NCBI GenBank assembly: GCA_016203305.1 | Contig: JACQMY010000020.1 | Location: forward strand, 8,003 to 72,002 | DNA: 64,000 nucleotides | Direction: 5' to 3' | Source of the DNA: Candidatus Woesearchaeota archaeon | GTDB taxonomy: Archaea > Nanobdellota > Nanobdellia > Woesearchaeales > ARS49 | Shown here: positions 484 through 51,998 of the stretch, piece after piece | Layout: each line of letters opens with the position of its first letter | Numbering within the stretch: the first letter of the stretch is position 1 | Made by a program: the position numbers and the translations under genes | Notes under the pieces: generated by a model | The model's input: the letters and a program-made list of their open reading frames with translations, nothing else | What the model was told of the DNA's origin: nothing | Databases searched by the model: none

Positions 484-570
484 AGTTGGTAGTGTGGGTA
501 GGGCGCAGGATGAAGGAAGAAGATGGAAGGATGAAGGCAGTAGGACGTAGGTTGAAGAATGTAGACTACT
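484..570 (+). repeat. Degenerate heptamer tract (NNNNAGG)n in the divergent ftsZ/ribL spacer
   Basis: gcaggatgaaggaagaagatggaaggatgaaggcagtaggacgtaggttgaag has AGG at 7-nt spacing. It belongs to the same family as the other tracts listed below. Confidence 0.7.
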
Positions 571-640
571 AACTACGCACTACAAACTCAGAAGAAGGAC
601 GAGGAGCGTGAAATTATTAAACAAAGCCAAAAATACACTG

Positions 641-1075
641 CTAATGAAAACAGTAATGGCATTCGGAACATTTGATGTATTGCATCCAGGACACTTGTTT
701 CTATTTTCAGAAGCCAAAAAACATGGCGATCGCCTTGTGGTAGTTGTAGCCCGCGACAAAACAGTACAAAAAGTCAAAGGACACCAAACACTCCATGACG
801 AACAAAAAAGATTGCTTGCAGTCAAACAATCTACTGAAGTAGATCTGGCAGTACTCGGACACCTTGACGACGTATACAAAGTTCTTGAAGAACACAAGCC
901 AAACGTTATTTGCCTAGGGTACGACCAGCACGCATTCACAGACAAGCTAGCGTGTGAATTGGAAAAACGAAAAATAAACGCAAGCATAGTACGACTCCCA
1001 CCATACCAAGAACACTTATACAAAAGCTCGATCATCAAGAGCAAACACGCTTCCTGCCAACAGGATGTTCTCTAA
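641..1075 (+). CDS. ribL: FAD synthase / cytidylyltransferase-like nucleotidyltransferase (archaeal RibL type)
   Basis: MKTVMAFGTFDVLHPGHLFLF...VVVARD matches the HxGH nucleotidyltransferase motif and the layout of archaeal RibL. The ORF track starts at a GTG at 608; the ATG at 641 fits the RibL N-terminus better. Confidence 0.7.
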   Translation, partial: LMKTVMAFGTFDVLHPGHLFLFSEAKKHGDRLVVVVARDKTVQKVKGHQTLHDEQKRLLAVKQSTEVDLAVLGHLDDVYKVLEEHKPNVICLGYDQHAFTDKLACELEKRKINASIVRLPPYQEHLYKSSIIKSKHASCQQDVL

Positions 1076-1286
1076 ACACTTTTTTCAGATGCAACATGTC
1101 TGCAGTTGCTTTCTTGGCAGTCTCCTGATCCTTCGTCACATTGCGCAACTGCAACAGCCTCCGAATGACAGGAGCATAACCGTCACGCTTCACCAATCTT
1201 TCCAACAAAGAACGACGCTTTGATTGAAGCAAAGACTTGCTCCAACCACCAAGCTTGCCAGACTCAAAATGCGCCCATTTTTTCAT
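1035..1286 (-). CDS. Small basic hypothetical protein (83 aa), downstream of cmk and the FKBP gene on the same strand
   Basis: Lys/Arg-rich ORF. I cannot place it in a recognisable ribosomal-protein family. The call rests on position and intact reading frame only. Confidence 0.35.
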   Translation of the reverse strand: MKKWAHFESGKLGGWSKSLLQSKRRSLLERLVKRDGYAPVIRRLLQLRNVTKDQETAKKATADMLHLKKVFREHPVGRKRVCS

Positions 1287-1324
1287 AAGCTAAGTATAAT
1301 ATCTGCGCTTAAAAGAATTGTGAA

Positions 1325-2035
1325 TCAATGCTTATGATTCGGATCGCTATGGTCGTGTCCAGCATGATCGTGATGGTCGTCTGCTTTTTTTGACTCTGGT
1401 TCATGAAGGATGTAATCAACGTCACAACCTGTCAGTTCCTTAACCTTCTTAGAAAGCTCGGCCAAAATTTCAGCAGGCAACTTTGGAATGTCAACCTTTG
1501 CCTTATTGCCAGCAACTTCAACCTTTGTCCTAATGCCCAAAAGCACCTTAAGAATGGATTCAACCTGCACCTTTTTGTCCGTAACAACCTTGTTAACCTT
1601 CAGCTCGTAAATAACATCATGACCAGCAAGAGGGTGGTTGAAATCAACAACAGTTCTGCCACCACTAACAGACTTGATAATGCCAACGTAGCCGTCAATA
1701 TTTAATCTCAGACCAGGAACAGGCTTGATCCCTTGTTCAGCAAACTTGTTAGTCGGCAACATTTTCAGCATGCTAGCATCTTTTTTGCCAAAAGCATGGT
1801 CTGCCTTAATTTCAACAGAAAACTTGCCAGCATCCTTGCCAACCAAAAACTCATCTAGACCCTTCAACAAATGGCCCTCGCCAACGCAGATAACAATAGG
1901 TTGGTATATTGCATTCTTCGCATGAATCTTAGACTCCTTCGCAGTTTTCTCATCAGTAGTATCAAACACTTCATTAGAATCCTTCAAACGGCCAGTATAT
2001 TCCAACTCGACAAAATCGTTCTTTTTAATCGGCAT
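1325..2035 (-). CDS. FKBP-type peptidyl-prolyl cis-trans isomerase (long archaeal SlyD/FKBP26-like) with a His-rich C-terminal tail
   Basis: The FKBP fold signature is present (VELEYTGRL..G.VFDTT, HPLAGH). The C-terminal HHDHAGHDHSDPNHKH resembles SlyD metal-binding tails. The likely start is the ATG at 2035 (MPIKKNDF). The GTG at 2053 overlaps the cmk stop. Confidence 0.8.
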   Translation of the reverse strand: MPIKKNDFVELEYTGRLKDSNEVFDTTDEKTAKESKIHAKNAIYQPIVICVGEGHLLKGLDEFLVGKDAGKFSVEIKADHAFGKKDASMLKMLPTNKFAEQGIKPVPGLRLNIDGYVGIIKSVSGGRTVVDFNHPLAGHDVIYELKVNKVVTDKKVQVESILKVLLGIRTKVEVAGNKAKVDIPKLPAEILAELSKKVKELTGCDVDYILHEPESKKADDHHDHAGHDHSDPNHKH

Positions 2036-2049
2036 AGAACGAGGGGGAC

Positions 2050-2601
2050 TCACTTGCTTTTTAAAACTTTGCCCTTCATCAAATCAATGATCTTTTTGGC
2101 TATTTTATCCGGTGTGAGATTTGTTGTGTCAATAATGTGGTCATAATTCTTCAGATTCAAAAAGTCAACATTATACCATTTCTTATAGCGAGCAGCTGTC
2201 TCGTTCAGCCTTTTTGAAATCATTTCAAACACTTCTTCAACGGAATCCTTGTGCGCTTCATCAGGCCGTTGGTTTGCGAAAATCCGTCTTGCAGCTTCAT
2301 GTAAATCGACGTCCAGAAAAATCTTCACAGAGTTTGGAATAAAATTCCACGCAAGCCAGCTGTCAAACACGATATTATCCTCGGTCTTGCCCATCTTTTC
2401 TAGCAAATCATCACACTCCTTATCAGTCCAGATCTCCTTCTTTCCAACCTCATTCAACTGGTCTATAGTCAGCCCGTGCTTCATCGCGATCTGGCCTCTC
2501 AAATCGCCAGCAGAAAAAAACTTGTAACCAAGCTCCTTTGCTACAATCCTAGCAACAGTAGACTTTCCAGAACCTGGCTTACCGGTAAGTGTGATTATCA
2601 T
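2050..2601 (-). CDS. cmk: Cytidylate kinase, archaeal type
   Basis: MIITLTGKPGSGKSTVARIVAKELGYKFFSAGD carries the P-loop. Length and layout match archaeal CMP kinases. Confidence 0.8.
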   Translation of the reverse strand: MIITLTGKPGSGKSTVARIVAKELGYKFFSAGDLRGQIAMKHGLTIDQLNEVGKKEIWTDKECDDLLEKMGKTEDNIVFDSWLAWNFIPNSVKIFLDVDLHEAARRIFANQRPDEAHKDSVEEVFEMISKRLNETAARYKKWYNVDFLNLKNYDHIIDTTNLTPDKIAKKIIDLMKGKVLKSK

Positions 2602-2692
2602 TTCTTTGCAAAATATTTACTTGTTTATAATCATTATTGTAGCCCTCTTTTATAAAAATTATCAATAGAGGATAAAATTTATAAAGAGGTCC

Positions 2693-3577
2693 TTGTGGCA
2701 GCAGACTGTGAGTGAAGAAATCCAGTTTGAAGAACAACATCAGACACAAGTAGCTATTGCTCCTGAAATGAGCAGAGCATACAAGGAAGCAACAGGAGAC
2801 ACAAACAAACTCCACGACGTCTACGCACTAGGCTTTCAACTTGAACTAATTCTGGAAAGACTAGCACGGCCGGTAGTTACAAGGTATAATCCCTTCCATG
2901 AGCTTGTCGGCATTCAAACAACATTCCACCTGCCAGTACCAGTTGATGCAACATGCACTGCAGAAATCAAAGCAGACGCAGATAGAGCCTATATTCAGGC
3001 ACAACTTATCCACGAAGGAAAAGTTGCAACAACCAGCGAATTACGTTATGGCTTCGAAGGAGTCAGACTATGCGCTCCTGGAACACTTTGCCTTGCAGTA
3101 CCAACAATTGAAGCACGCGCAAAACAACACCTTCCAGTACAATACGTGCTAACTGAACAAAACGCGCGACTTGCAGCACAAGGAATAGGCAAAACAGAAC
3201 CAGACTATGCAGCATTAGCACTAGGACTAGTAAGCAACGCGCTAATCCAACGAGCACGAGAACTCCAACCAGAAGGAGGAGAATCAAAACAACCAAAATA
3301 CGACCAGCACACAATCATACCCTGCGCAGGAATACGCGAGCTTACAGACGGCACAAGTATAGATGTATATGTTGCCCTAGAACCAATAGAAGAAACAGTA
3401 AAAAATCCATTAACTGGAAATCGCACAGAACTCAAGCGCACAAACAGATACCGCGCATTAGCATACGCAGAAGCAGAAAAAGTGCCAGTCTATGCATTCC
3501 TCGCGCAAATCAAAATCATGAAAGAAGGCGGACTACAAAGACTGCTTGACAAGGCAAAAAGAACCGCAAACCCATAA
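2693..3577 (+). CDS. Hypothetical protein (294 aa)
   Basis: Long ORF with ordinary composition, upstream of the thermosome gene on the same strand. No family recognised. Confidence 0.5.
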   Translation: MWQQTVSEEIQFEEQHQTQVAIAPEMSRAYKEATGDTNKLHDVYALGFQLELILERLARPVVTRYNPFHELVGIQTTFHLPVPVDATCTAEIKADADRAYIQAQLIHEGKVATTSELRYGFEGVRLCAPGTLCLAVPTIEARAKQHLPVQYVLTEQNARLAAQGIGKTEPDYAALALGLVSNALIQRARELQPEGGESKQPKYDQHTIIPCAGIRELTDGTSIDVYVALEPIEETVKNPLTGNRTELKRTNRYRALAYAEAEKVPVYAFLAQIKIMKEGGLQRLLDKAKRTANP

Positions 3578-3626
3578 TCTTTTTAAACCACCTGCTTCCG
3601 ATTATAGTAATACTGGGGTGAACACC

Positions 3627-3657
3627 ATGGTATCGAAAGCTTCGCTTTCGGAACCAT
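3627..3657. promoter_or_regulatory. Near-palindromic 31-nt element in the thermosome promoter region; candidate heat-shock operator
   Basis: GGTATCGAAAGC TTC GCTTTCGGAACC has a perfect CGAAAGC/GCTTTCG core. AT-rich TATA-like boxes flank it at 3604-3614 and 3655-3664, and GGAGGTG sits 7 nt before the ATG. Confidence 0.4.
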
Positions 3658-3696
3658 AAAAATCACTTTAGCACATAAACACTGGAGGTGTTTTTT

Positions 3697-5322
3697 ATGG
3701 CCAAAGAAGTACAACCAATCTTTATCCTGCCGGAAGGCACACAACGAACTACAGGAAAGAACGCGCAACGCAACAACATAATGGCAGCAAAACTAGTTGC
3801 TGAAACTGTTCGCACAACACTAGGGCCAAAAGGCATGGACAAAATGATCGTTGACTCAATGGGAGACATCACCATAACAAACGACGGAGTCACAATCCTT
3901 GAAGAGATGCAAGTAGAACACCCAGCAGCAAAAATGATAGTCGAAGTAGCAAAGACACAAGAAGCAGAAGTCGGAGATGGAACGACAACAGCGGTTGTCA
4001 TCGCAGGCGAACTACTTAGACGCGCAGAAGAACTACTAGACCAAAACGTGCATCCGACAGTCATCGCGCGCGGCTTCAGACTAGCAGAAGAAAAAGCACA
4101 AGAAGTCCTCAACAAAATAGCAGAAGACGTGAGCGACAAAGATGATGCAGTATTGCGGAAGATAGCAGGAACAGCATTAACAGGCAAGGGAGCAGAATCA
4201 GCAAAGGACAAACTCTCAGAAATAGCAGTCAAAGCAGTCAAACGCGTGATCGAACATGAAGGAGGACACATCCACTTCGACAGAGACAATGTCAAGCTAG
4301 AAAAGAAAACAGGCGGCTCGGTGGAAGACACAGAACTAATTGAAGGAATCGTAGTAGAAAAAGAAGCAGTGCATCCCCAAATGCCAAAAATGATCAAAGC
4401 ACCAAAAATCGTATTGCTGGATTGCGCAATAGAAATCAAAGACACGGAAATAGACGCAAAAATCGAAATAACAGAACCATCACAAATGCAAGCATTCTTG
4501 GCACAGGAAGAAAAAATACTGTCAGAAATGGCAGACAAAATAGCAGCAAGCGGCGCAAACGTCCTCTTCTGCCAAAAAGGAATAGATGATTTAGCTCAAC
4601 ACTTCCTGGCTAAAAAAGGCATATACGCAGCAAGACGGGTGAAGAAAAGCGACTTAGAAGCACTCAGCAGAGCAACAGGAGCGCGCGTAGTGACGTCAAT
4701 CAAAGACTTGAACAGCAAAGACCTAGGAACAGCCGGTATGGTAGAAGAGAAAAAAATCGGCAGCGAAGAAATGACCTTTGTAACAGGATGCAAAAACCCA
4801 AAGGCAGTAACAATATTGGTACGCGGCGGAACCGAGCATGTTGTTGATGAAGCAAAAAGAGCGCTTACTGACGCCATAGGAGACGTAGCAGCATCAATCA
4901 AAATCGGCAAAGTAGTGGCAGGAGCAGGAGCGCCAGAAATAGAAGTCTCAAAAGAATTACGCAAGTTCTCAGACACCCTAACAGGAAGAGAGCAACTAGC
5001 AGTCATGGCTTTTGCTGAAGCACTCGAAGTAATTCCAAGAACGCTCGCAGAGAACGCAGGAATGGACCCAATAGACATCTTGGTTGAGTTGCGCGCGGCT
5101 CATGATAAGAAGCAGAAGTGGGCAGGCATAGACGTCTTCAAAGGAAAAGTAGTAGATTCATGGGCAGCAGGTGTAATTGAGCCACTCAAGATAAAAACAC
5201 AAGCTCTGAGTTCTGCATCAGAAGTGGCACAAATGATACTGCGAATAGACGACGTCATAGCTGGCAGCAGCAAAGGCGGCGGAATGCCACCAATGGGCGG
5301 CGGCCACGGAATGGAGATGTAA
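3697..5322 (+). CDS. ths: Thermosome subunit (group II chaperonin)
   Basis: [28 protein letters not shown]...LGPKGMDKM...[16 protein letters not shown] and a C-terminal GGM tail ([15 protein letters not shown]). The ATG at 3697 is preceded by GGAGGTG. Confidence 0.95.
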
Positions 5323-5432
5323 GATAGGATGAAGGACGTTAGGGATTAGGCATTGGGTACTAGGTTGTAGGTATTAGGACGAAGGGCGCAGGATGAAGGC
5401 GGAAGGAAGAAGGACACAGGTTGTAGGAAAAA
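5322..5432 (+). repeat. Heptamer tract (NNNNAGG)n immediately 3' of the thermosome gene
   Basis: GATTAGG CATTGGG TACTAGG TTGTAGG TATTAGG ACGAAGG GCGCAGG ATGAAGG CGGAAGG AAGAAGG ACACAGG TTGTAGG: twelve consecutive in-phase 7-mers ending in AGG or GGG. Confidence 0.8.
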
Positions 5433-5626
5433 GATAAGAACTGTTGGCTGTCCAGATCCTAACCAAGCATACATAACAACGCCAACAATCGTTTAAAGCT
5501 CATACGAGTTCTTAACCAAAACGAGCTTAACTAAACTTTGCAAGGGAAAACGTACAGTATGTGGGGAAATCTTTATATATCCTCCAAGCTCTATTTAAAT
5601 CATTCAACAATAAAAAGGTGATTTAC

Positions 5627-6157
5627 ATGCCAGAAGACGTTCCTCCACAAGAAGAAGAATATGAATTACTTCCGCACAAAGAAATAGAAGAGCTAAAACA
5701 AGAACTCTCCAAACTAAAAGAATTTGAAGTAACACCAAGCAAAAAAATGCACGTCAGCTTGCTGGAACTCAATACAAAGCTCGACAAATTGCTAACCATC
5801 TTTGAAGATGCAGCGCACGAAATGAGAGTAGAAGAAGGCGGACTAAGCTTTGCAGAAAAAATGCGACCACTACTCGAAAAGATGAACAAGGTGCTAGAAC
5901 AAAATAGCGAGATAGCATCAGGCATACTTGCACTTGCGGACATGGTAAAAGACGTGAAAGGACCAACATCCATGCATGACGAGCCAAGAATGCCAGAACC
6001 AGTATTCCCAACACCAGCAGCACCGGCAGGAATGCCTCCACTGCCAGGAATGCCACCAGGAGGAATGCCACTTCAAGGCGCAGGAATCCAGCCGCCACCA
6101 AGAGGCAACATACCACCACTCCCGCCACTTCCACGCAAAAGAACGTTCGGACTCTAA
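5627..6157 (+). CDS. Coiled-coil protein with a Pro/Gly/Met-rich C-terminal tail, hypothetical
   Basis: The ATG at 5627 is preceded by AAGGTGA. Heptad-like EELKQELSKLKEF runs into PAAPAGMPPLPGMPPGGMP...PPLPPLP. Confidence 0.5.
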   Translation: MPEDVPPQEEEYELLPHKEIEELKQELSKLKEFEVTPSKKMHVSLLELNTKLDKLLTIFEDAAHEMRVEEGGLSFAEKMRPLLEKMNKVLEQNSEIASGILALADMVKDVKGPTSMHDEPRMPEPVFPTPAAPAGMPPLPGMPPGGMPLQGAGIQPPPRGNIPPLPPLPRKRTFGL

Positions 6158-6160
6158 ACA

Positions 6161-6700
6161 ATGACCAAGCTAGACATCGGAGACATGTTTATAGACCGAG
6201 TAAAAAGCAGCCTATTTCTCTACTACCTAGCACGCGCAAGCCAAAGACAAGATAACAGGCAATTAAGGCATCGCAAGGAAGAACTAGCAGTCAAACAAAT
6301 GCGCAAGCTAAACACCAACGCCCTACGTGGGCACGTAAAAGAACTAGACACGCACATGACAGAAGCAATAAAACGCGAAAGAGCCATACAAACCCACCAG
6401 CAAGGAGAAGAACACGTACACACAGAACTAAAACACAAAATCACAGCACTAGAAGGCAAGCTAGGAAGATATTTGGAAACACAAGAACAACGCAAAAAAA
6501 GAGTGCAAGAGCTTGAGCAAAAAATTGTTCAAAAATTCAAAACCAAAAAAGAAAAAATAAACGCATTACACCAGGATGTAAGCAAGCTAACCAAGATTTA
6601 TTTAGCAATAAAGAAAAGCAGAAAGCACACACCAGAACAATTGTTACGCGTTGCGAAACGGATAGCGGTGCTGAAGCAAAGAATAGCGATGCTGCACTAA
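6161..6700 (+). CDS. Coiled-coil hypothetical protein, co-operonic with the preceding gene
   Basis: It starts 4 nt after the previous stop. It is highly charged and predicted helical throughout. Confidence 0.5.
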   Translation: MTKLDIGDMFIDRVKSSLFLYYLARASQRQDNRQLRHRKEELAVKQMRKLNTNALRGHVKELDTHMTEAIKRERAIQTHQQGEEHVHTELKHKITALEGKLGRYLETQEQRKKRVQELEQKIVQKFKTKKEKINALHQDVSKLTKIYLAIKKSRKHTPEQLLRVAKRIAVLKQRIAMLH

Positions 6701-6718
6701 GTCTCCAAATGCCGCTCA

Positions 6719-7153
6719 TCAAGCCTTATTTGCCTGAGAAAGATATTCTCCAGGGGTGATGATCTTTGTCTTTCCAATTTGTTTAAGAACGAGCAGATCA
6801 TCATCCAGTGAAACCAAAAAATCAGCATCTATTTGATTTGCAAGCGAAAGAAACTTATCATCTTTTGGATCGCGACACAATCTAATCTCAAATTCCTGCA
6901 GTTGCTGAATATCATAAGAAACCTCTTGAATGATATGAAGAAAATGATCCTGCTTTTCTCTGTCCAACCCAAACTTTTCTCTCGACAAGACACTCTTCAC
7001 TTCTTCAATAATCTCTCTGGTGTAAAAATTGAATACACGTTGCTGAACAATTTGCTCGAAGACAGCGGCAGCACCGCCCGTCTCAGAAAGAAGTGCGGCC
7101 ACGTACGCGCTCGAGTCCAAAATGACTCTAACGCTTCTTGATCTCTCCAACAA
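6719..7153 (-). CDS. vapC: PIN-domain ribonuclease toxin (VapC-like)
   Basis: VILDSSAYVA....D...FLSLANQIDADFLVSLDDD shows the acidic residues of a PIN fold. It overlaps the upstream AbrB-type gene by 26 nt. Confidence 0.65.
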   Translation of the reverse strand: MLERSRSVRVILDSSAYVAALLSETGGAAAVFEQIVQQRVFNFYTREIIEEVKSVLSREKFGLDREKQDHFLHIIQEVSYDIQQLQEFEIRLCRDPKDDKFLSLANQIDADFLVSLDDDLLVLKQIGKTKIITPGEYLSQANKA

Positions 7154-7373
7154 TCTCCGCCTCGCTCAACTTCTCCACGGATGCTCTCAGATTCTGGAAT
7201 TCGCCCAGGAGTTTCTTCCGGTCAACACGCCGGAAAACCAACGTATCCTTATCTACCATCACTATGCTGAACAGCGTTCCCTTTGGAGCAGGCATCTGAT
7301 CACGAATAGACTTTGGAATAACAGCCTGTCCGCGTTCTCCGACCGTTGTCAATTCTACTTCCATGCCTTTCAT
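7128..7373 (-). CDS. vapB: AbrB/SpoVT-MazE-type antitoxin (VapB-like)
   Basis: VGERGQAVIPKSIRDQM is the swapped-hairpin AbrB DNA-binding signature. It sits directly upstream of and overlapping the PIN gene. Confidence 0.65.
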   Translation of the reverse strand: MKGMEVELTTVGERGQAVIPKSIRDQMPAPKGTLFSIVMVDKDTLVFRRVDRKKLLGEFQNLRASVEKLSEAEIVGEIKKR

Positions 7374-7380
7374 TCATATT

Positions 7381-7397
7381 AGTATGATAATCATACT
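7381..7397. promoter_or_regulatory. Perfect palindrome AGTATGAT-A-ATCATACT 8 nt upstream of the vapB start; candidate autoregulatory operator
   Basis: Read directly from the sequence. It sits where TA operators usually sit. Confidence 0.4.
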
Positions 7398-7499
7398 TAT
7401 AAAGATTGCGTTTTTATGTGTGATTATCAAATAGTCCTTATGAAACGAGAAGACTGGCTAAGAATTGTCAAGCCAACCATTGTGGAATTTAGCAACTAA

Positions 7500-8612
7500 T
7501 CACTTGAACTGTAACAGCGCACCACGATAAGTATGAATCCGAATACCCTGTTGTCGCGTCACTTCGCCCGCAACCTTTGCCTCCAAGCCACGGTTTTTTG
7601 CAATTGCAATCACCTGCTCTGGCTGCGGCGTCACCAATAACATGCCATTCCCCATATTCCACGTCCTGTGCGCATCCTCCTCGCTCATCCGCGCCATATC
7701 GTGAATGTCTTTCATCACTTGCGGTGGCTCAAATAACCCTCCCAACGTTGCCCCAAACCCTGAAGGCTGCAACGCCCGTTTCAGCTTCTCAGGAATTCCG
7801 CCGCCAGTAATGTGCGCAACCGCGTGAAGCTTCGCACGAGGCTCATCCCAAACGCCCCCAAACATATCAACGACCGCGGCAGAATAAATGACTGAAGGAG
7901 TAAGCGCCAACTCGCCCAAATGAGCACCCTCTAGTGTTGTTTCCCAGTTCATCCCGTACGCATCACGCAACGTCCTGCGCACCAGCGAAATCCCGTTCGA
8001 GCGAAAACCATTCTCGCGCAAAGCAACAATTGCATCACCTGGCACTACCTCCTTGCCCGTAATCATCTTGTCCTCATGCGCAAACCACACTAACCCTGCG
8101 CCCCAATTATAGTTGAAACCACTATAACCCGAAACACGCGCGCCAAGCTCGGCAACCTCACCATTAATCACAGCAACACCCGCATCCCTCGCTGCGTGCA
8201 CGTACCCTACAGCTAACTGCGCGATCACATTCAAATGATTTTTTTGCGGGCCATTCAACTGATTCACATCCAAAATAGAACCGACCAACACGGGCTCAGC
8301 ACCACGAACAACCGCATCATCGCATACCATCGCAAACAAATCATATGCCACCGTATCATGACTCCCCAAACGCTCCGCAAGTTCCACCTTCGTTCCCACA
8401 CCATCAAACCCCAATGACATGATCGTGCCCTTTGGGAGGTTGCCAACTCTTATTGCTCGCAAACCAGAAAAAGAATCGGTTGGAACAATCACTTCACCTA
8501 AACGACCCTTTCTATTCTCCCACGTCTGCTTTGCCGCCTCATAAAAGATCCGCGAAGCGCCCTCTTTTAGATCATCATGAACCCCTGCGGCAGCATATGC
8601 CTCGTTCGCCAT
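7500..8612 (-). CDS. purM: Phosphoribosylformylglycinamidine cyclo-ligase (AIR synthase)
   Basis: GFDGVGTKV, AMVCDD and the HITGGG-like motifs match the PurM family. The start is the ATG at 8612 (MANEAYAAAGV); the ORF track extends upstream to 8678. Confidence 0.9.
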   Translation of the reverse strand: MANEAYAAAGVHDDLKEGASRIFYEAAKQTWENRKGRLGEVIVPTDSFSGLRAIRVGNLPKGTIMSLGFDGVGTKVELAERLGSHDTVAYDLFAMVCDDAVVRGAEPVLVGSILDVNQLNGPQKNHLNVIAQLAVGYVHAARDAGVAVINGEVAELGARVSGYSGFNYNWGAGLVWFAHEDKMITGKEVVPGDAIVALRENGFRSNGISLVRRTLRDAYGMNWETTLEGAHLGELALTPSVIYSAAVVDMFGGVWDEPRAKLHAVAHITGGGIPEKLKRALQPSGFGATLGGLFEPPQVMKDIHDMARMSEEDAHRTWNMGNGMLLVTPQPEQVIAIAKNRGLEAKVAGEVTRQQGIRIHTYRGALLQFK

Positions 8613-8659
8613 GCGATTCTTTTTCAAGAACTTAGTTATAAGAATTATTGTTCTCAAAT

Positions 8660-10366
8660 CTACTTGTGCGCGAACCAAAATGTTAGTTTATCCTTCTCCT
8701 TCTTGTCCAAACGGCAGAAGCCAAAGCGCTCGAATTGGACCATGTCTCCGGCTTTGAGATCTTTCAAACCAATTTCGCCCAGTCCTTTTATCAATTTCTT
8801 GTCGGTCATCAACACTTCAACGTTCACATTATCAGCATCCCTTGGAAGCCAGTGTAAGGTGGATTCTCCACGCTCGCGATACACAACGTAGTCAGTGCTG
8901 TCAAAAATAAACTCCTTGCCCTCCTTGCGGAAGTTCAAACAATCCATCAGACGATAAAGCTTCTTTGCCTTCGTCTTGTTGAGATCATCCTTGGAAACAT
9001 AAAACTCAGTGTTTGCATTAAAAGAACGATCGCCACGCTTATGATAATCGGGATGCAAGTGAAGTTTGACAGTCTGCTCAGGTGCGTTTTTAACAGTCAA
9101 TTTTACAGGATTTGCAACGAAAAAGTATCTGTTCGCTACAGGGTCGATAATGTCGCGGTTGTGAGCCTCCAAACTCTTGAAAAAATCATCAGCAGGAACA
9201 ACCTTGTCATTCAAACCAATGCCCATGTCCATCGCAAAACGATGGAAAGCACCAGGTTGAAAGCCACGACGCTTCATTGCTGCTAAGGTAACCAAACGAA
9301 TGTCGTCCCAGTCATCATACTCGCCACGCTCAATGGCTGCCTTGATCTTGCGCTTGCTAATCTCAACACCCTCAAAATTAATCTTGCCAATATAGGAATG
9401 AGTTGGAGAATTCCAGCCAAAAAAGTTGTAAATATGCTGCTGGCGCTTCGCATTATCCATATGATCCTTCCCGCGAATAGTGTGCGTTACGCCCATCTCA
9501 TGATCGTCAATAGCAACAGCAAAATTCATCAAAGGCCAAACTTTATACTTATCCTTCGTTCTTGGGTGCACGTTATGATTAATCCGCATAGCAGGCCAGT
9601 CACGCATTGCAGGATTCGGATCATTAATGTCAGTCTTAATTCGTACCACTGCCTGGCCAGGCTCGTACTCAACAAACATCTTATCCCAACGAGAAACTTG
9701 CTCCTTGATTGACAAATCCCTGCAAGGACATGGCTGCTTTTTCATCACAAAATTCCTAAATAAATCACCAGAGCAAGTGCAAACATAAGATTGACCTTTG
9801 TTGATCAACTTCTCCATATAATCATAATAAGTCTCCAAACGATCACTCTGAATGATAACCTTGTGGATATGATTGTCGGTCATCCAATTCCAATCCTGTT
9901 CGGTAAGCCTGTAAGCAGGCTCGTAAATCTCCTCAGGATTCGTGTCCTCAAAACGCAAAATAAGCTTGCCATCATACTCCCTGCAATACAAATGACTCAA
10001 CGAAAAAACAACACCATGACCGATGTGCTGCATACCACTCGGACTTGGAGCTAAACGCATAACAACCTTGCCTTTGACCGCATTAGGCAACGGCTTAAGC
10101 TTTTTTTCTTCAACAACCTTTTTTTCAACCAAAAGTTCAGGAGCAAGCTTTTGCAATTCCTCTATTTGCTGTTCAACAGGAATGACTTTGACTTCATCAC
10201 AAATATTCTTGATCTCCGGCGTTAACGCCTTCAAATTAGCTTTTAACTCAGGACGCTCGCCAATCAATTTACCAACAACAGCCCCCATATTAGGAACACC
10301 ATTGTATTTACGAGCGTTATCCAAAGCGTACTTACGGATGATAAGCTTAAGGTCGTCCATGCACAC
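8660..10366 (-). CDS. gltX: Glutamate--tRNA ligase, archaeal/eukaryal type
   Basis: Class I HIGH motif (PSPSGMQHIGH), ILRFEDTNPE, and the WDD.R..TL..RRG signature of the GluRS/GlnRS family. The N-terminal ~100 aa (YALDNARKY...) is typical of archaeal GluRS. Confidence 0.85.
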   Translation of the reverse strand: MCMDDLKLIIRKYALDNARKYNGVPNMGAVVGKLIGERPELKANLKALTPEIKNICDEVKVIPVEQQIEELQKLAPELLVEKKVVEEKKLKPLPNAVKGKVVMRLAPSPSGMQHIGHGVVFSLSHLYCREYDGKLILRFEDTNPEEIYEPAYRLTEQDWNWMTDNHIHKVIIQSDRLETYYDYMEKLINKGQSYVCTCSGDLFRNFVMKKQPCPCRDLSIKEQVSRWDKMFVEYEPGQAVVRIKTDINDPNPAMRDWPAMRINHNVHPRTKDKYKVWPLMNFAVAIDDHEMGVTHTIRGKDHMDNAKRQQHIYNFFGWNSPTHSYIGKINFEGVEISKRKIKAAIERGEYDDWDDIRLVTLAAMKRRGFQPGAFHRFAMDMGIGLNDKVVPADDFFKSLEAHNRDIIDPVANRYFFVANPVKLTVKNAPEQTVKLHLHPDYHKRGDRSFNANTEFYVSKDDLNKTKAKKLYRLMDCLNFRKEGKEFIFDSTDYVVYRERGESTLHWLPRDADNVNVEVLMTDKKLIKGLGEIGLKDLKAGDMVQFERFGFCRLDKKEKDKLTFWFAHK

Positions 10367-10439
10367 AAGAAGTCAATGATTGCTATTTAAAGCTGACTGT
10401 GCCGAAAGCTATAAAAACCCCACCTTGCGGCGATTCTTT

Positions 10440-11048
10440 ATGAGCAGATTAGAATACAGAGTACAGCCACCAAGTCACGAACTATTCCAAGAAGCACTTG
10501 AGACCTTGCCTTGCCCAGTGCGGCAGCTTAAGGTACGCTTCTTCGCAAATGGATTCATCCCTCCAGAACGAGATGCTGGTGAAGATGCCGTCAATGCATA
10601 TCTTGCACAATGTTCAGAGCATGGAATTATACCAAACTCGTATTCTCAGCTTGAAGTCCACGAAGGTGGCAGATTCTCGACCGATAACTATCGCGCGGAA
10701 ACACTACGAAATGCACCTCCGCGTGCAATGAAAGCATTCCTCCAAGGAGGCAGAGTCAACCACGTTGAAGTTTTCATGCGCGATGGGGATAAAGAAAAAA
10801 TGCGCACATTGAAAGAACTTGTGTTCCCTGAGCTCAAAAAAGCAGCCTACTTGCCTCAATGCGCGAATATCGCGGTAACCATCCGTGGTGAGAGCGCAGA
10901 AAACTCCCTATTCCTTGGATTTGGACGGATCAACCCAGGCCTCTGGCTCTGCTTTGACAGTCTAACCGCAGAACAGCTTAGCGTTTTTGATCCGTGGTAT
11001 CGGGCACTCAAAGAGAAATACCACGACGAGACTTATGTTGAAGAATGA
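10440..11048 (+). CDS. Hypothetical protein (202 aa)
   Basis: The ATG at 10440 follows the TATA-like GCTATAAAAAC at 10408-10418. No family recognised. GC is slightly above its neighbours. Confidence 0.45.
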   Translation: MSRLEYRVQPPSHELFQEALETLPCPVRQLKVRFFANGFIPPERDAGEDAVNAYLAQCSEHGIIPNSYSQLEVHEGGRFSTDNYRAETLRNAPPRAMKAFLQGGRVNHVEVFMRDGDKEKMRTLKELVFPELKKAAYLPQCANIAVTIRGESAENSLFLGFGRINPGLWLCFDSLTAEQLSVFDPWYRALKEKYHDETYVEE

Positions 11049-11091
11049 TTCTTACTAACGCTGCAGCTTCTTCCGTTTATGTGTCCAGTAT

Positions 11092-11433
11092 CTACTTTAT
11101 GATTATATTGTCTTCAGATATAATTGCGATCTTCCCGTGGAGTTGGTTGAGGACTCCTGATAGTAGAACATGAAGGAGAACAGAGGAAACTGTTTCTGGA
11201 TCTTGATGCCGGCAACGCATGAGAATTACGCCAACTTTCTTGTAGAACGATACTTGAGCGAAATCCTTGTCATGGGTGATGATCACTCGCTGTTCTCGCT
11301 TTGCCATTGAGAGAACATGAACATCGGAGCTGCCGGAAAGTTGCTCCTCCTTGATATCCTTGACATCAAACCCTCCTGCGCGTATTCTTTGAACAACAAG
11401 TGCAGCGACGTTTTCATCCGTTAGGAACTTCAT
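11092..11433 (-). CDS. DUF5615-type (PIN-like) putative toxin, paired with the DUF433 gene
   Basis: MKFLTDENV....ITHDKDF is typical of DUF5615. It is 4-nt overlap coupled to the upstream DUF433 gene. Confidence 0.6.
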   Translation of the reverse strand: MKFLTDENVAALVVQRIRAGGFDVKDIKEEQLSGSSDVHVLSMAKREQRVIITHDKDFAQVSFYKKVGVILMRCRHQDPETVSSVLLHVLLSGVLNQLHGKIAIISEDNIIIK

Positions 11434-11660
11434 GCGAGTTGCGCAACGGCATAGAGCTCTTCGTTGCGAAGAACGCGAGATGCATATGCAAGCGCAGCAA
11501 GAACATCCTCGCGCTTGAGTTCAGGGTAGTTTTTGAGAATCTCCGCAATAGTCATGCCAGAGGCAAGAAGTTCAAGAATAAATTCCACGGATATTCGCGT
11601 CCCTCGAATTATCGGTTTTCCAGCAAGGATTTTCTTATCAATGATTATTCGGTCACTCAT
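11430..11660 (-). CDS. DUF433 protein (putative antitoxin partner of DUF5615)
   Basis: MSDRIIIDKKILAGKPIIRGTRISVEFILELLASGMTIAEILKNYPELKREDV matches the DUF433 consensus. The start is at 11660; the track ORF extends to 11777. Confidence 0.65.
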   Translation of the reverse strand: MSDRIIIDKKILAGKPIIRGTRISVEFILELLASGMTIAEILKNYPELKREDVLAALAYASRVLRNEELYAVAQLA

Positions 11661-11718
11661 AAGGGGGGATAAAAGCAGAAGCAATATATAAATTCGTTGC
11701 TGAAATATCCTTCTGCAA

Positions 11719-11973
11719 TCAGCGTTCCAGCTTCGGACTCTTGCGCTTGTGAGCCCAGCCGAGACCGTAAATGGCAACGACCACCCAAATTGTGTTCAGA
11801 ACAAAAGAAGCATACGACTCATGGCGGAAAGTCTCAATTGACAACAAAGCACCACCAAACAAGTTAAGCAACAAGTAAGTGTAAGAATGCGAGTGAACCA
11901 CTTTGTGAGTCAACAACCAAAAGGCCAACAAGATAATAAAAGCACCAGACCAGCCAAGAATGTCAAGAATCAT
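11719..11973 (-). CDS. Small membrane protein (2-3 TM helices)
   Basis: Hydrophobic 84-aa ORF immediately downstream of the M56 peptidase gene. Confidence 0.4.
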   Translation of the reverse strand: MILDILGWSGAFIILLAFWLLTHKVVHSHSYTYLLLNLFGGALLSIETFRHESYASFVLNTIWVVVAIYGLGWAHKRKSPKLER

Positions 11974-12668
11974 CGCACTTTATTCCTCGCGCAACGCACA
12001 AACTTCCACGTTTTCTGAACGCGCGCTGCAAAAGAGTCAGCAGCCATTTCCTCTCGCGCAACAGAAGATGAAGAAAACCAAGCAATTGGTGAAAATGCTC
12101 GCACGATTCCATGGGAGAATTTATTCCAGGAGGCGCCGGATTTTACATGATGAAGCTCGTGCAACAAAACCGCTTCCAGCTCTTTCTGCGAAAGCACATC
12201 AAACATGCCAACAGAAACGAACACCCTCTTGCCCAACGTGAACGCTTGTGGAACACCCTTGTTGATCAAAAATAGCTCGGCAACAATGCCAGTCTTCCTC
12301 AACAATTTGTTGAACAATGCCGAGTCCAAAGGCTTTCCAACAAATCGATACGCGCGCGGCAGAATAAAGACTCCGCCAATCAAAGCAAAAGACAAAGCAA
12401 ACGGCAAAACATACAATATTGCCTTAGCAAACACGAAAGTACACCAAGCAAGCAAGCCCTCAACAAACTTCATGCTACAGTTGACTGACAAAGCGATGTA
12501 AAACAAAGGAGAAAGAACAAACACCAAGTGAGCGAACAACAGCCATGGCTTGTTATACCGCTTCCAAGCAATAAGTGAAGCCATAGCTATCAAAAGCGAA
12601 ACAGTCACCACTAACATTTTCGTTGGATTGGTAAGTAACGCTACCACGCCATCAACAACCATGGTCAC
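11970..12668 (-). CDS. BlaR1/MecR1-like M56 zinc metallopeptidase, short form without a sensor domain
   Basis: Four TM helices, then HELHHV (HEXXH) and a downstream EEMAADSFAARV (E..A.D), as in M56 anti-repressor peptidases. It overlaps the BlaI-like gene by 4 nt. Confidence 0.65.
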   Translation of the reverse strand: MTMVVDGVVALLTNPTKMLVVTVSLLIAMASLIAWKRYNKPWLLFAHLVFVLSPLFYIALSVNCSMKFVEGLLAWCTFVFAKAILYVLPFALSFALIGGVFILPRAYRFVGKPLDSALFNKLLRKTGIVAELFLINKGVPQAFTLGKRVFVSVGMFDVLSQKELEAVLLHELHHVKSGASWNKFSHGIVRAFSPIAWFSSSSVAREEMAADSFAARVQKTWKFVRCARNKVR

Positions 12669-13027
12669 CTCTTGAAACGATCATTGAAATATGACACTGC
12701 ATTCGAGCCAAAAGTCTCGATCAAACGATTGACAGTCTTCTCAACAACAGACTTCTCAAACTCCGCCTTATCTTGAGTTGGGAAATAAATATAACGCACG
12801 CCTCCACGCGCAGTTTCAACCTTTCTCGCCACAATACCCTTGTCATGGAGCCTGTCAAGGATTACAGCAACACTGCTCAATGCAACCTTCCTCTTTAACT
12901 TCTGATGAATCTCGCGAACGCGCAACTTCTTATCAGGCCAAAGAATGCCGAGTACATCTCCCTCCAACGGGCTGAGCAATGCATCAAAATCACTAACCTT
13001 TTCCTTCATAAGCCAAATAATGACCAT
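12665..13027 (-). CDS. BlaI/MecI/CopY-family winged-helix transcriptional repressor
   Basis: LSPLEGDVLGILW....VREIH......SSVAVILDRLHDKGIVAR is the penicillinase-repressor family signature. The alternative start MKEKVSDF is at 13009. Confidence 0.7.
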   Translation of the reverse strand: MVIIWLMKEKVSDFDALLSPLEGDVLGILWPDKKLRVREIHQKLKRKVALSSVAVILDRLHDKGIVARKVETARGGVRYIYFPTQDKAEFEKSVVEKTVNRLIETFGSNAVSYFNDRFKR

Positions 13028-13060
13028 TAGCTTTAAATATTTTACGCAAGTTGTAACGGT

Positions 13061-13660
13061 TTGATGAAACTACACGCATTACTGCTCACACTACTGCTTG
13101 CGTGCAGCACAACATTGACGCCAGAAGAGCAATCGTACAAAGAACTCTGCACTAAAAACAATCATGCATGGATGAGAATGAGCGAGCTCAAAGACGGACA
13201 CCCTACGGGCAACACGTGCTATGGCTGCATGCCAGACGAAAAAAACCACCTCTGCAGCAAGGAAGAGTATGACGCGCTATTGCCAAAACATGATGCTCAT
13301 GAAGCGCACATCGCAACCATGCTAGTACACGCAAATGGCAATCGCACGGTTAACATACACGACTACTCTGTAACCCTTCAACACGACCCGCTCGAAACAG
13401 ACAAAGAACTAGACTTCAAATTCTCTTACGAAAAACAAGGACAGCCGTTAACACTTCAACTCACACATTCTGCACCAATGCACGCGATCATTGTAAGCAA
13501 GGATTTGGAAAAATTCTACCACCTACATCCTGAACTTGAAAAACCTGGAACGCTAAGCACACGCCATATATTTGACAAGCCAGGAAAGTACCGGATGTGG
13601 ATAGAATTCACCTATTATAATATACAGCACACCATTGATTTTGATTTGGAAGTAAAATGA
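13061..13660 (+). CDS. Lipoprotein with lipobox LLLAC, Cys/His-containing, hypothetical
   Basis: A signal peptide is followed by the lipobox Cys. It contains C-x2-C and several His. The stop overlaps the start of the CcdA gene (ATGA). Confidence 0.55.
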   Translation: MMKLHALLLTLLLACSTTLTPEEQSYKELCTKNNHAWMRMSELKDGHPTGNTCYGCMPDEKNHLCSKEEYDALLPKHDAHEAHIATMLVHANGNRTVNIHDYSVTLQHDPLETDKELDFKFSYEKQGQPLTLQLTHSAPMHAIIVSKDLEKFYHLHPELEKPGTLSTRHIFDKPGKYRMWIEFTYYNIQHTIDFDLEVK

Positions 13661-17039: not shown

Positions 17040-17080
17040 TATACCAGAAGCGTTTCAATATTTGTAAAGCAAGAGGGACA

Positions 17081-17838: not shown

Positions 17839-17874
17839 AACTAACAATTGACATTCAATACGGAGGGGAAAAAC

Positions 17875-37206: not shown

Positions 37207-38379
37207 ATGAAATACGTCTTTGCATTTTTCATACTGTTACTGGCGGCATGCGCGCCATTCCAAGCAGGAAAAGCAACAGAGTTCAACGACTGCGCGCAAT
37301 TACAAGAAAAACTCGAACAACTAAATGCGCTAAAAGCAAAATACACTGCAGACTGCAGGAATGGAGATTCTAATGCCTGCCTACTAATGCGTGAACAAGA
37401 TCAAAAAATAGGCCAATACGCCTCTGCAGCACGGGCATGCGCAGCAGTTCCGCCTGCACAGCCAGGCATAACGCCTGCAGTGCCACCAACACTCCCTGGA
37501 ATACCTCCTACTCCACAGATACCTGGGCAAACAACCCCTGCTGTACCACCGCCGCCAAGCGTTCCTGAACAAGTAGCTCCAGCAGTGCCACCGCCACCTG
37601 CTGCACCAGGACAAACAACACCCACCCCGCCACCTAGCACTCAACCAGCCCCTATGGCACCACCGCCACCACCAACGCCTGGAACTCAACCATCTCCAAC
37701 TGCGCCCCCACCACCGCCTGCTCCGACAGCATCACGCGCAGACATAACAACCTCACCAGAAGGACCAGTAAGATACCTTCCAGTCACGCAACGCGGCTGC
37801 TCAGCAGACCTAGGAAAATCCTGCGGAAAGTGCGGCGGCATTGTGAAATGCGACGGAACATGCAGCATACAAACCCCTGCAAACATTGACGCGTCATGCG
37901 GCAAATGCGGAGGAAAAATCAAGTGCGACGGAACATGCAGCATACAGACTCCAGCGAACATTGACCAGCCTTGCGGTTGCGGAGGAAAAATCAATTGCGT
38001 AGGAACGTGCACAGACACGCAAACATACAGACTTGGACAGGCATGCAATTGCGGCGTCACCCAATGCGTTAACAATGCCTACCAATGCTCAGGCCCAACA
38101 TGCGCATACCCAAAAACCTGCCAGGCAGGAACGTGCAAGCTGCCCTGCACTGATACAGACGGAGGTAAAAACGCAGCAGTGCGTGGAATTACAACCGGAT
38201 ACACCCGCACCCCCTGGGGAGGACTATCATCCTACCCGCTGACTATGAATGATTACTGCGATGGAGCGTACCTCGTTGAATACTTCTGCCAACAAGGCTA
38301 CGTGGGCCCAGGAGCCATGGACGGCCTGCTCGAACAAGTCAGAATACAGTGCAGGTGCAGTGGCGGAGCTTGTGTTTAA
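37207..38379 (+). CDS. Lipoprotein (lipobox LLLAAC) with a Pro-rich linker and Cys-rich tandem repeats
   Basis: PAVPPPP linker, then CGKCGGIVKCDGTCSIQTPANIDASCGKCGGKIKCDGTCSIQTPANID (direct repeat), then further Cys-rich sequence. Confidence 0.6.
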   Translation: MKYVFAFFILLLAACAPFQAGKATEFNDCAQLQEKLEQLNALKAKYTADCRNGDSNACLLMREQDQKIGQYASAARACAAVPPAQPGITPAVPPTLPGIPPTPQIPGQTTPAVPPPPSVPEQVAPAVPPPPAAPGQTTPTPPPSTQPAPMAPPPPPTPGTQPSPTAPPPPPAPTASRADITTSPEGPVRYLPVTQRGCSADLGKSCGKCGGIVKCDGTCSIQTPANIDASCGKCGGKIKCDGTCSIQTPANIDQPCGCGGKINCVGTCTDTQTYRLGQACNCGVTQCVNNAYQCSGPTCAYPKTCQAGTCKLPCTDTDGGKNAAVRGITTGYTRTPWGGLSSYPLTMNDYCDGAYLVEYFCQQGYVGPGAMDGLLEQVRIQCRCSGGACV

Positions 38380-41635: not shown

Positions 41636-41636
41636 G

Positions 41637-50861: not shown

Positions 50862-50897
50862 AATTGTAACGGTTGGCGGTCAAGCTATTTAAACATT

Positions 50898-51920
50898 ATG
50901 AAGAACATTCACGCAGCCTTACGCAAAACACGACAAGCATGCAGAACGATTAATCCATACACACCTATTATAAATCAGAAATTCTTCCTCTGCCACATGT
51001 ACCAAGAGGTGATAGTATTTCTAGTAGGCTGCATAGTATTAGTCAAAAGCTCAGACTACGCAGTAAGGTCAATAGCGCACATCGCAAGATCATTGCGGAT
51101 GACAGAATTCGTAACAAGCTTTATCATGGTAGCGCTGGTGTCAGCACTGCCAGAAACATTCATCAGCATAATAGCGGCAATCAAAGGAGACCCGAGCATA
51201 GGAATAGGAACCCTGCTTGGAAGCAACATAGCAGACCTAACGCTCATCCTTGGATTGGTCGCCCTCGCAGGACACCCGCTAACAGTCCATAGCAGCATAA
51301 TCAAAAAAGACATGTATTTTGTCGGACTAACAACACTGCCAATCATACTCGGACTAGACGGAACACTTGGAAGAATAGACGCGGCAATACTACTCATCAG
51401 CGGAATAACATTCATGATAGTCCTCCTATCAGAAAGAGAATACTTCCACAAATCATACAAAGACGGCAACCACTTTATCAAAAACACCCTAATATTCATA
51501 CTCAGCGCAGCACTAATGCTTGCAGCAGCAACAGCAATCGTAACCAGCAGCCACACACTCGCCATCAACATAGGAATACCCGCAATGATAATCGGACTAG
51601 TGCTAATCGCACTAGGAACAACACTCCCAGAATTCACATTCTCACTACAAAGCATCAGAAAAGGACATTCCTCACTCGCAATTGGAGACCTGCTAGGAGT
51701 AGTAGTAGTTGACGCGACAATCATAACAGGAATAACAGCACTAATCCAACCAGTAACGCTCAACCTATTCCTACTATCAATAGTAGGAGTCTTCACAGCA
51801 ATAGCAGCAGTATTCGCACTAATGTTTATGAGAACAGACGAAACAATAAACAAAAACGAAGCCATAACACTCATATTATTCTACATTGCATTTGTAGTTG
51901 TACAAGTGTTTTTAGCGTAG
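50898..51920 (+). CDS. Na+/Ca2+ exchanger (CaCA family, YrbG-like)
   Basis: Two alpha-repeat motifs: GSNIADLTLILG and GDLLGVVVVDATIITG. The alternative start MYQEV is at 50997. Confidence 0.75.
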   Translation: MKNIHAALRKTRQACRTINPYTPIINQKFFLCHMYQEVIVFLVGCIVLVKSSDYAVRSIAHIARSLRMTEFVTSFIMVALVSALPETFISIIAAIKGDPSIGIGTLLGSNIADLTLILGLVALAGHPLTVHSSIIKKDMYFVGLTTLPIILGLDGTLGRIDAAILLISGITFMIVLLSEREYFHKSYKDGNHFIKNTLIFILSAALMLAAATAIVTSSHTLAINIGIPAMIIGLVLIALGTTLPEFTFSLQSIRKGHSSLAIGDLLGVVVVDATIITGITALIQPVTLNLFLLSIVGVFTAIAAVFALMFMRTDETINKNEAITLILFYIAFVVVQVFLA

Positions 51921-51998
51921 ACGAAGGACGTAGGCTGTAGGACGAAGGCGATTGGCTGTTGGCTTTTAGCTATTAGGATGAAGGATGAAGATCGTTAT
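51916..51998 (+). repeat. Heptamer tract 3' of the exchanger gene
   Basis: gtagacgaaggacgtaggctgtaggacgaaggcgattggctgttggcttttagctattaggatgaaggatgaag. Confidence 0.75.

Follow-up and report, generated by a model that had tools for sequence, protein, structure and literature searches.

The 64-kb window considered here (the whole analysed stretch of 64,000 nt, positions 8,003 to 72,002 of contig JACQMY010000020.1 in assembly GCA_016203305.1) comes from the groundwater genome of a Candidatus Woesearchaeota archaeon, a member of the DPANN, and carries 12 tandem-repeat tracts with a 7-nt period. All 12 are G/T-rich on the + strand, and most begin at the stop codon of a + gene. Judged by look and location, the tracts represent, in an archaeon, a variant form of the intergenic heptamer arrays known from many bacteria (the STRR/LSSR class). 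The explanation that we prefer for their strict orientation is a tentative one, held at rather less than even confidence: the tracts may be DNA-level arrays that were seeded at the stops of lagging-strand genes and are tolerated in only one orientation relative to replication.

The tracts add up to 1,040 bp, or 16 bp per kb, and range from 26 to 169 nt in length and from 4 to 18 in copy number, with ends that are not conserved. Eleven of them were listed in a preliminary description made from the letters of the sequence, and each was recovered at the same position; to these can be added a (TTGGCTN)n tract at 15730-15811. The 7-nt period is genuine. Four or more AGG triplets at exact 7-nt spacing form a chain nine times on the + strand and never on the - strand. 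A motif-free self-match test, with a threshold of at least 26 matches in 42 at lag 7 and with other periods and 20 Markov shuffles as controls, gave 9 regions at period 7, 0-1 at the other periods from 4 to 11, and 3 at period 12, while each of the 20 shuffles gave 0. A stricter 28-nt test found 7 regions at period 7 and 0 at periods 5, 6 and 8-11. The possibility of an assembly artefact, raised in the preliminary description, can be excluded because independent assemblies reproduce two of the tracts exactly: Logan assemblies of two SRA runs have 0 mismatches to the window across 51916-51998, and the independent assembly L323 is identical to it, again with 0 mismatches, across 484-570. On the + strand the tracts are 38% G and 9% C, compared with 19% and 26% for the whole window. 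Eleven of the 12 lie in spacers or overlap a stop codon only, one (15730) lies inside a coding linker, and 9 of the 12 are found between 15.7 and 35.7 kb, a region of mostly + genes. An Rfam scan of the window returned tRNAs only, with no family match inside any tract.

The orientation on a single strand is confirmed (12/12 tracts, two-sided binomial p ~0.0005). It had been proposed that this orientation follows the chromosome and not the genes, a claim that holds in part. Where tracts touch - genes, at 32083 and 15730, the G-rich strand is still the + strand; these are the two places where a gene-sense rule and a chromosome-strand rule conflict, and the chromosome-strand rule holds in both. 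Independence from genes, however, cannot be maintained, since 8 of the 12 tracts have their start at the stop codon of a + gene or overlap it (5322, 17796, 18076, 19352, 22448, 26726, 35585 and 51916; tracts are cited by start coordinate). The tracts at 484 and 21784 had been described as lying between divergent genes, but both spacers lie between + genes, because ORF 39-335 is a real + gene with homologues of 43-59% identity in three relatives, and the gene downstream of 21784 is + by codon statistics. Gene orientation alone is insufficient to produce the polarity, because sense tracts are present 3' of genes in 9 of 18 spacers after + genes and in 0 of 11 after - genes (Fisher p = 0.005). 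Within 0-36 kb the same contrast is 8/13 vs 0/6.

The window also has a strong compositional polarity that does not depend on genes. The ORF set is made up of 43 + and 44 - ORFs, with no leading-strand gene bias. On the coding strand, third-codon-position skew is -0.31 for G over C (GC3) and +0.52 for A over T (AT3) in + genes, and +0.34 and -0.52, respectively, in - genes. Read on the + strand, this amounts to a GC3 skew of about -0.32 and an AT3 skew of about +0.52, with GC3 negative in 57 of 59 ORFs. As the sign on the + strand is the same for both gene orientations, the window is a single domain of strong skew, in which the tracts occupy the C/A-rich strand. It is well established that G exceeds C and T exceeds A on leading strands, and from this general rule, rather than from a mapped origin, we infer that the + strand is of lagging type. 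The tracts are therefore G-rich islands on a G-losing strand, placed against the mutation pressure. The (CCT)n orientation would escape the loss of G, yet none was seen. Strong, orientation-independent third-position skew extends across the clade as well (L001, L002, L004, L445 and L447, genomes or contigs of relatives). Against this background two genes of the window can be mentioned for their skew. The 639-aa ORF 19562-21481, probably a recent insertion, has GC3 and AT3 skew near zero, no Pfam match and no counterpart at the syntenic place in L002; heptamer tracts flank it on both sides (19352-19520 and 21783-21824). In ORF 23602-24366 the skew is reversed.

The units themselves are very degenerate. 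Among 89 A-type units (NNKWAGG) there are 46 distinct sequences, and only K-W-A-G-G is conserved: the information content is ~0.1 bit at positions 1-2, 0.8 at position 3 (G/T), 0.6 at position 4 (T/A), and 1.45-1.63 bits at positions 5-7 (AGG). TRF matches within tracts are 69-88%. The switch from A-type units to a TTGGCTN family (B-type), noticed in the preliminary description, is confirmed in the tracts at 19352, 22448, 26726, 35585 and 51916, where it takes place without loss of the 7-nt register. All modules in fact share one common register, which is kept across module changes, and their typical order is T-type (xATTAGG, xxGTAGG), purine-type (xxGAAGG), ATGAAGA, TTGGCTN and GTAGTNT. Units that end in AGA, AAG or AAA resemble the expected products of G-to-A decay, and they too retain the register. 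Recent slippage was looked for by comparing units within tracts, and adjacent, lag-2 and lag-3 units were no closer than random pairs; over positions 1-4, adjacent units have 2.42 differences and random pairs 2.49. Two-unit blocks, on the other hand, are shared between different tracts more often than expected on unit shuffling (5 observed vs 1.35 expected, p = 0.0035). A-type tracts have no significant predicted fold on either strand (z near 0), so that their RNA is predicted to be unstructured while carrying phased WAGG, an arrangement that may be compared with the phased-triplet sites of CsrB/CsrA and TRAP.

Comparison with relatives shows how quickly such arrays come and go. The nearest species representatives have conserved gene order and a thermosome identity of only 82-88%. 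In L001, L002, L004 and L005 the orthologous spacers are shorter and without tracts, and this includes the thermosome 3' spacer, where the tract is absent from all four; the counterpart of the 17796 spacer is 23 nt in L004 and that of the 19352 spacer 62 nt in L002, neither with a tract. Eight relative loci were reached via thermosome homologues, and these gave one clear extra tract, in L447, and none in the other seven; a perfect (TTTTTGG)3 run was present inside a coding region. The single tract of L001 begins on the TAG that ends a 790-aa + ORF, and its G/T-rich strand is +, the C-rich strand (flank GC skew -0.22). In L447 (87% thermosome identity) the local skew is reversed relative to locus coordinates, and the tract is on the other strand, with 6 B/C-type units directly after the stop codon of the 16871-17800 orthologue. 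One operon spacer can hence be seen in three states: the window has 6 units of A-type there, L447 has 6 of B/C-type and L004 has none. Quick gain and loss between related genomes is a property of the known class of heptamer arrays, and the tracts appear to be of recent, lineage-specific origin. L447 is also of interest for a region of ~3 kb (9108-12256) that holds an upstream ORF, the thermosome gene and the next two genes and in which third-position skew is opposite to the rest; this fits a recent local inversion that has kept its old skew.

Under the preferred explanation, the arrays would arise and spread at the DNA level, a process that the 15-aa, heptamer-derived linker expansion in ORF 15404-16411 would fit. 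Seeding would occur where a stop codon followed by G (TAG-G or TAA-GG) forms W-A-G-G; the position at stop codons is observed, and the arrays would begin exactly there because stop plus G already makes a unit. They would then grow, or be copied from site to site, in the 7-nt register, and the blocks found in more than one tract could be a product of such copying. Arrays would persist only when the G/T-rich strand is also the lagging-type strand, C/A-rich at synonymous sites. Such a filter is suggested by the analogous case of repeats prone to form structure, whose expansion and deletion depend on orientation, and the link between polarity and skew is observed within one skew domain and two relatives. 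With this filter in place, the tracts would be found at the 3' ends of genes on the lagging strand, whose transcription meets the fork head-on. From there they would be carried passively in 3' untranslated regions (UTRs) and intercistronic RNA without terminating transcription, as the position of tract 17796 in a 47-nt operon spacer suggests. Finally, whatever reads or makes the arrays would recognise the phased K-W-A-G-G core, in keeping with the conservation pattern seen among units. A bolder version, which we consider doubtful, would make the arrays a cis element specific to one replication strand, located where lagging-strand genes have their fork-facing 3' ends and kept there against mutation pressure. 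Such an element would act at the DNA level, for example in head-on replication-transcription encounters or in lagging-strand priming.

Several observations weigh against the preferred explanation. For the source genome, sequence alone was used, over one skew domain, and no flip of orientation at an origin or terminus was seen. The skew is equally strong in L002 and L004, which have no tracts, and skew alone is therefore not sufficient. The Xanthomonas repeats of the same class are about equally distributed between strands, with no leading/lagging preference (PMC4692102). Outside the lineage, flanks are G-rich on the G-strand of the array in ~70% of cases among the matches listed in our viral and metagenome scans, opposite to what is found here; a general rule that G-rich arrays lie on the C-rich bulk strand thus fails, and the feature common to different organisms may be the sense strand rather than the replication strand. 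These outside arrays are from bacteria, phages and other metagenomes, and many are of the eukaryote-type, telomere-like kind. Lastly, neither recent slippage nor neutral decay predicts that neighbouring units should be unlike while positions 3-7 alone are conserved. This pattern points to selection on the phased motif, possibly at the level of RNA.

That last possibility is the basis of the strongest rival, which we regard as possible, if on the unlikely side. Here the tracts would be RNA-level cis elements, unstructured platforms in 3' UTRs and intercistronic RNA that offer (U/A)AGG every 7 nt, either to a single-stranded-RNA-binding protein or to the anti-Shine-Dalgarno region of 16S rRNA through weak binding, and so affect mRNA 3'-end stability or re-initiation. 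Such a role would suit tract 17796, located in an operon spacer just upstream of the next Shine-Dalgarno sequence (SD), and the absence of a significant fold in A-type tracts, which is typical of binding platforms. It would also account for the position-specific conservation (1.45-1.63 bits at positions 5-7) of otherwise unlike neighbouring units, and for the presence of tracts made of different units in one orthologous spacer in two lineages. Among the viral matches listed, 99 of 190 arrays have a sense ORF that ends no more than 30 nt from their 5' end and 36 of 190 have the mirror image of this, in a test that is biased by stops inside the arrays. However, with W at position 4 the units steer clear of the GAGG/GGAG SD core that genes here use, no candidate binding protein was identified in the window, and the orthologous spacers of most relatives have no tracts. 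An RNA-level role also leaves unexplained why 0 of 11 spacers after - genes have a sense tract and why the tracts at 32083 and 15730 are antisense to their genes.

The remaining explanations are less likely than either the preferred DNA-level arrays or the RNA-level element. One, which in our view is rather unlikely, is that the tracts are functionless heptamer microsatellite debris and that their polarity reflects a preference for sense orientation and stop codons, clustering among + genes, and chance. The class is widespread and its function obscure (PMC6344855, PMC4692102), turnover among relatives is fast, orientations are mixed on multi-tract bacterial contigs among the matches listed, and 9 of the 12 tracts do fall in the 15.7-35.7 kb region, where genes are mostly +. 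Chance and clustering are nonetheless hard to reconcile with 12 of 12 tracts on one strand (p ~0.0005) or with a spacer contrast of 9/18 vs 0/11 (p = 0.005) that can still be seen as 8/13 vs 0/6 within 0-36 kb. Debris would not be expected to maintain the AGG phase against the dominant G-to-A pressure on the + strand, the neighbour similarity expected of slippage is missing, and the tract in L447 tracks the reversed skew.

It is very unlikely that the tracts are copies of a small, non-autonomous mobile element with internal 7-nt periodicity, whose orientation on insertion would be set by the fork, as is the case for IS200/IS605-type transposons, which move as single-stranded DNA. The recurring module order (T-type, GAAGG, ATGAAGA, TTGGCTN, GTAGTNT), the two-unit blocks common to different tracts, a 22-nt identity between 22448 and 26726 and the precise insertion after the stop codon when compared with L004 could all be accommodated by an element of this kind. 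Its expected hallmarks, though, are lacking: terminal or subterminal inverted repeats were not found at tract ends in 10 of the 11 regions examined, the 17796 junction shows no target-site duplication, lengths vary from 26 to 169 nt without conserved ends, and a Pfam scan of 40 window proteins gave no transposase, integrase or reverse transcriptase. The gene content of the window is housekeeping. The least probable explanation, non-B structure in the form of two-tetrad G-quadruplexes (G4) or R-loops that pause polymerase or fork at the 3' ends of head-on genes, can draw on the usual location of the G-rich strand on the non-template strand of the upstream gene, at what would be the fork-facing end of lagging-strand genes, and on the G4 formed in vitro by the related GGGAATC and GGGGACT repeats (PMC4692102), but is weakened by G runs of GG only with 5-nt loops, by TTGGCTN modules without G runs, by decay of units to AGA and AAG without loss of register, and by ViennaRNA with G-quadruplex energies, which predicts G4 in 1 of 10 tracts and in none of the pure A-type tracts, so that the two-quartet idea of the preliminary description was not borne out for 9 of 10 tracts.

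Three further candidates were considered and rejected. A hairpin or terminator fits the tract at 21784 only; inverted pairs elsewhere are short and imperfect, and none marks tract ends. Archaeal intrinsic terminators are ruled out by the lack of T runs in the tracts and by the location of 17796 in a 47-nt intercistronic spacer before the next SD. CRISPR arrays, with their repeats of 23-50 nt, are ruled out by the 7-nt period and the absence of spacers between units.

The individual tracts, all on the + strand, can be described in order along the window. The first is a composite tract at 475-570 (484-570 in the preliminary description), in which TTAGCCT GCAGTTG GTAGTGT (B/C-type) precedes 10 A-type units; the spacer that holds it separates the + genes 39-335 and 608-1075, and the upstream stop codon is ~150 nt away. 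The second, 5323-5432, has ~15 A-type units and begins at the first base after the TAA (5320-5322) of the thermosome gene (3697-5322), whose product is NCBI MBI4146205.1 at 100% identity; the protein ends at the same residue as in relatives, and the tract begins at the next base. The third (15730-15811), of B-type (TTGGCTN)n and then GTAGTTT units, is within the minus-strand ORF 15404-16411, where its minus-strand reading is a Q/P/T/S linker, which exceeds that of the L004 orthologue by 15 aa. Two neighbouring genes account for the next pair. The 6 A-type units of 17796-17838 include, in the first unit, the TAG stop of gene 16871-17800, and the tract is in the 47-nt intercistronic spacer upstream of the SD of gene 17848-18081. 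The weak or decayed A-type tract at 18076-18118 lies over and past the stop codon of gene 17848-18081 and is a paralogous copy of the 17796 context. The longest tract, 19352-19520, starts at the base after the TAG stop of gene 18200-19351 and is composed of 18 A-type units, ATGAAGA, 4 TTGGCTN units and GTAG units.

The tract at 21783-21857 is an orphan in a 430-nt spacer, with a TATA-like box upstream at ~21752. Its 6 A-type units (21783-21824) are followed by an inverted, CCTTC-phased arm (21831-21857), and it is the only significant hairpin, with 27-nt arms that are 78% complementary (z = -3.75). At 22449-22506, 4 A-type units are followed by 5 TTGGCTN-type units, and the TGA stop of ORF 22256-22459 (coding score 0.52, homologue in L002) falls in the second unit. 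The tract at 26726-26875, with which the former shares its 22-nt identity, runs from A-type to TTGGCTN to GTAGTNT units and then to GATGAAGAA, and the MazG-like ORF 26321-26746 stops on a TAG within it. Only 4 A-type units make up 32083-32108, which begins 3 nt away from the start codon (ATG) of an aminotransferase gene on the minus strand (30917-32080) and has its G-rich strand antisense to both flanking genes. The tract at 35585-35730 opens with 6 A-type units that overlap the Lgt stop codon (gene 34844-35590), continues with ~9 of B-type and ends in a short A-type tail; the TATA box of the following gene lies downstream of it. The last tract, 51916-51998, has 4 A-type units, 4 TTGGCTN units and two copies of GATGAAG, and follows the TAG stop of the Na/Ca-exchanger gene (50898-51920). 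Two Logan assemblies from separate runs, L081 and L082, both end at 52104, ~100 nt past this tract, which may be a strain-variable point or a drop in coverage.

Other features of the window deserve mention in their own right. The adjacent genes for 309-aa and 77-aa proteins, and their orthologues, share the C-terminal motif P-x-x-V-G-G-C-stop (window 17756-17800 and 18036-18081). It takes the form PSMVGGC in the window, PAMVGGC and PSMVGGC in L447 (760-1082), and PSQVGGC in L004 (21500-21540). The 77-aa protein starts with MNKNVVIAIVLG, which resembles a signal or transmembrane segment, and the P-x-x-V-G-G-C proteins make up an unannotated small family with a terminal cysteine. A 75-nt tandem repeat at 37849-38011 (2.2 copies, 82% matches) encodes a repeated 25-aa segment within ORF 37207-38379 (390 aa, no Pfam match). 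The 20-nt direct repeat TTCGGAAACCAATCAGTCTC, present in 2.5 copies at 60149-60199 in the 167-nt spacer upstream of the minus-strand gene 59534-60115, could be a regulator-binding site. An Rfam tRNA match at 58262-58373 (112 nt, 48 bits) has no ARAGORN call and overlaps the 3' part of ORF 57958-58377; it is probably an intron-containing archaeal tRNA.

What the tracts can teach about heptamer arrays depends on three properties of this genome. Because the units have diverged so far, the conserved core K-W-A-G-G at 7-nt spacing stands out, all arrays are on one strand, and strong gene-independent skew marks the replication strand even on short contigs. Whether such arrays are controlled by replication, by transcription and translation, or by neither can therefore be reduced to counting on a complete genome. 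An orientation that switches together with the skew would make them a replication-linked feature at the level of DNA; otherwise they are an ordinary, though degenerate, archaeal member of a known repeat class. Were the cis-element proposal true, it would give a first functional handle on the prevalence of 7-nt arrays in prokaryotic spacers.

Intergenic heptanucleotide arrays are the commonest prokaryotic tandem repeat, and the SPADE survey that reported this had "no clear clue" as to what they do (PMC6344855). Short tandem repeats in general are less dense in archaea than in any other domain (PMC12699852). A description of heptamer arrays in archaea or DPANN was not found in the searchable literature. 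The earlier statement that no archaeal element like this has been described can thus be kept for archaea, but in bacteria such arrays are widely documented (PMC6344855, PMC4692102, PMC4679880). Heptamers are over-represented among prokaryotic simple repeats, for which polymerase slippage has been invoked, according to Mrazek 2007 as cited in PMC4679880 and PMC4692102. The cyanobacterial STRR/LSSR repeats are, like the tracts, tandem heptamers dispersed in spacers (PMC6344855; Mazel 1990 and Mrazek 2007, as cited in PMC4692102 and PMC4679880). They differ in being described for bacteria and in that the slippage account predicts near-identical neighbours, contrary to the tracts here. The STRR2 unit, TTGGTCA, is similar to the TTGGCTN units.

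A close likeness is to the G-rich heptamers of Xanthomonas (GGGAATC) and Nostoc (GGGGA[C/T]T), which adjoin the 5' neighbouring ORF, are transcribed, and vary between relatives (Rehm et al. 2015, PMC4692102). Shared features include the 7-nt unit with a G run in fixed phase, an overwhelmingly intergenic location, a 5' end of the G-strand that abuts an ORF, an occasional site on the non-coding strand immediately before a start codon (compare 32083), occasional inverted pairs (as at 21784), variation in length and sequence among close relatives, and obscure function. The bacterial repeats, however, are near-perfect, favour four copies, contain G3-4 runs and have been shown to form G4, whereas the Woesearchaeota units are degenerate, with GG runs, no predicted G4, 4 to 18 copies and use of one strand. 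The TAACTGA repeats of marine Beggiatoaceae are likewise heptamer direct repeats in many spacers, and it has been proposed that they bind a single-strand-binding post-transcriptional regulator such as S1, Csp or a CsrA-like protein (MacGregor 2015, PMC4679880). Those repeats occur as 2-6 perfect copies just upstream of starts, while the tracts here are long, degenerate and just downstream of stops.

The viral and metagenome scans extend the comparison. Among the matches listed, phage and metagenome arrays use the same units (ATGAAGG, CAGTAGG, CTGAAGG, GATTAGG and TTGGCTG, among others), many with inverted partners; a five-unit mixed pattern in metagenomes returned mostly eukaryotic telomere-like TTTAGGG variants and bacterial CAGTAGG/CAGAAGG; bacterial contigs with several arrays have them in mixed orientations; and no array of the present lineage appeared. 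Some phage contigs (L094 and L202) carry 4-6 heptamer arrays. In L094 (IMGVR_UViG_3300009494_000037, 745-13463), (GGATTAA)n and (GGGGTAA)n are each followed by an inverted copy to give long hairpins, which adjoin gene ends on both strands and resemble a heptamer-built, terminator-like family.

Two further systems bear on orientation. An analogy with KOPS/Chi, drawn in the preliminary description, is apt in that orientation is tied to a chromosome strand. It does not hold further, since those are single 8-mers scattered through genes and enriched on leading strands, whereas the tracts are tandem arrays, restricted to spacers and on a lagging-type strand with C3>G3 and A3>T3. In Escherichia coli and yeast, the instability of CTG/CAG repeats depends on their orientation relative to the replication origin. 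These repeats offer a mechanism by which one orientation of a strand-asymmetric repeat can survive in a replichore, although they are triplets with stable hairpins and the A-type tracts have no predicted structure. Taken as a whole, the tracts share with the bacterial class their head-to-tail 7-nt units, spacer location, position next to an ORF and fast turnover among relatives, and they depart from it in lacking near-perfect units and the use of both strands. What is unusual here is the combination of a DPANN host, very degenerate units, strict polarity and a tie to an extreme, gene-independent skew.

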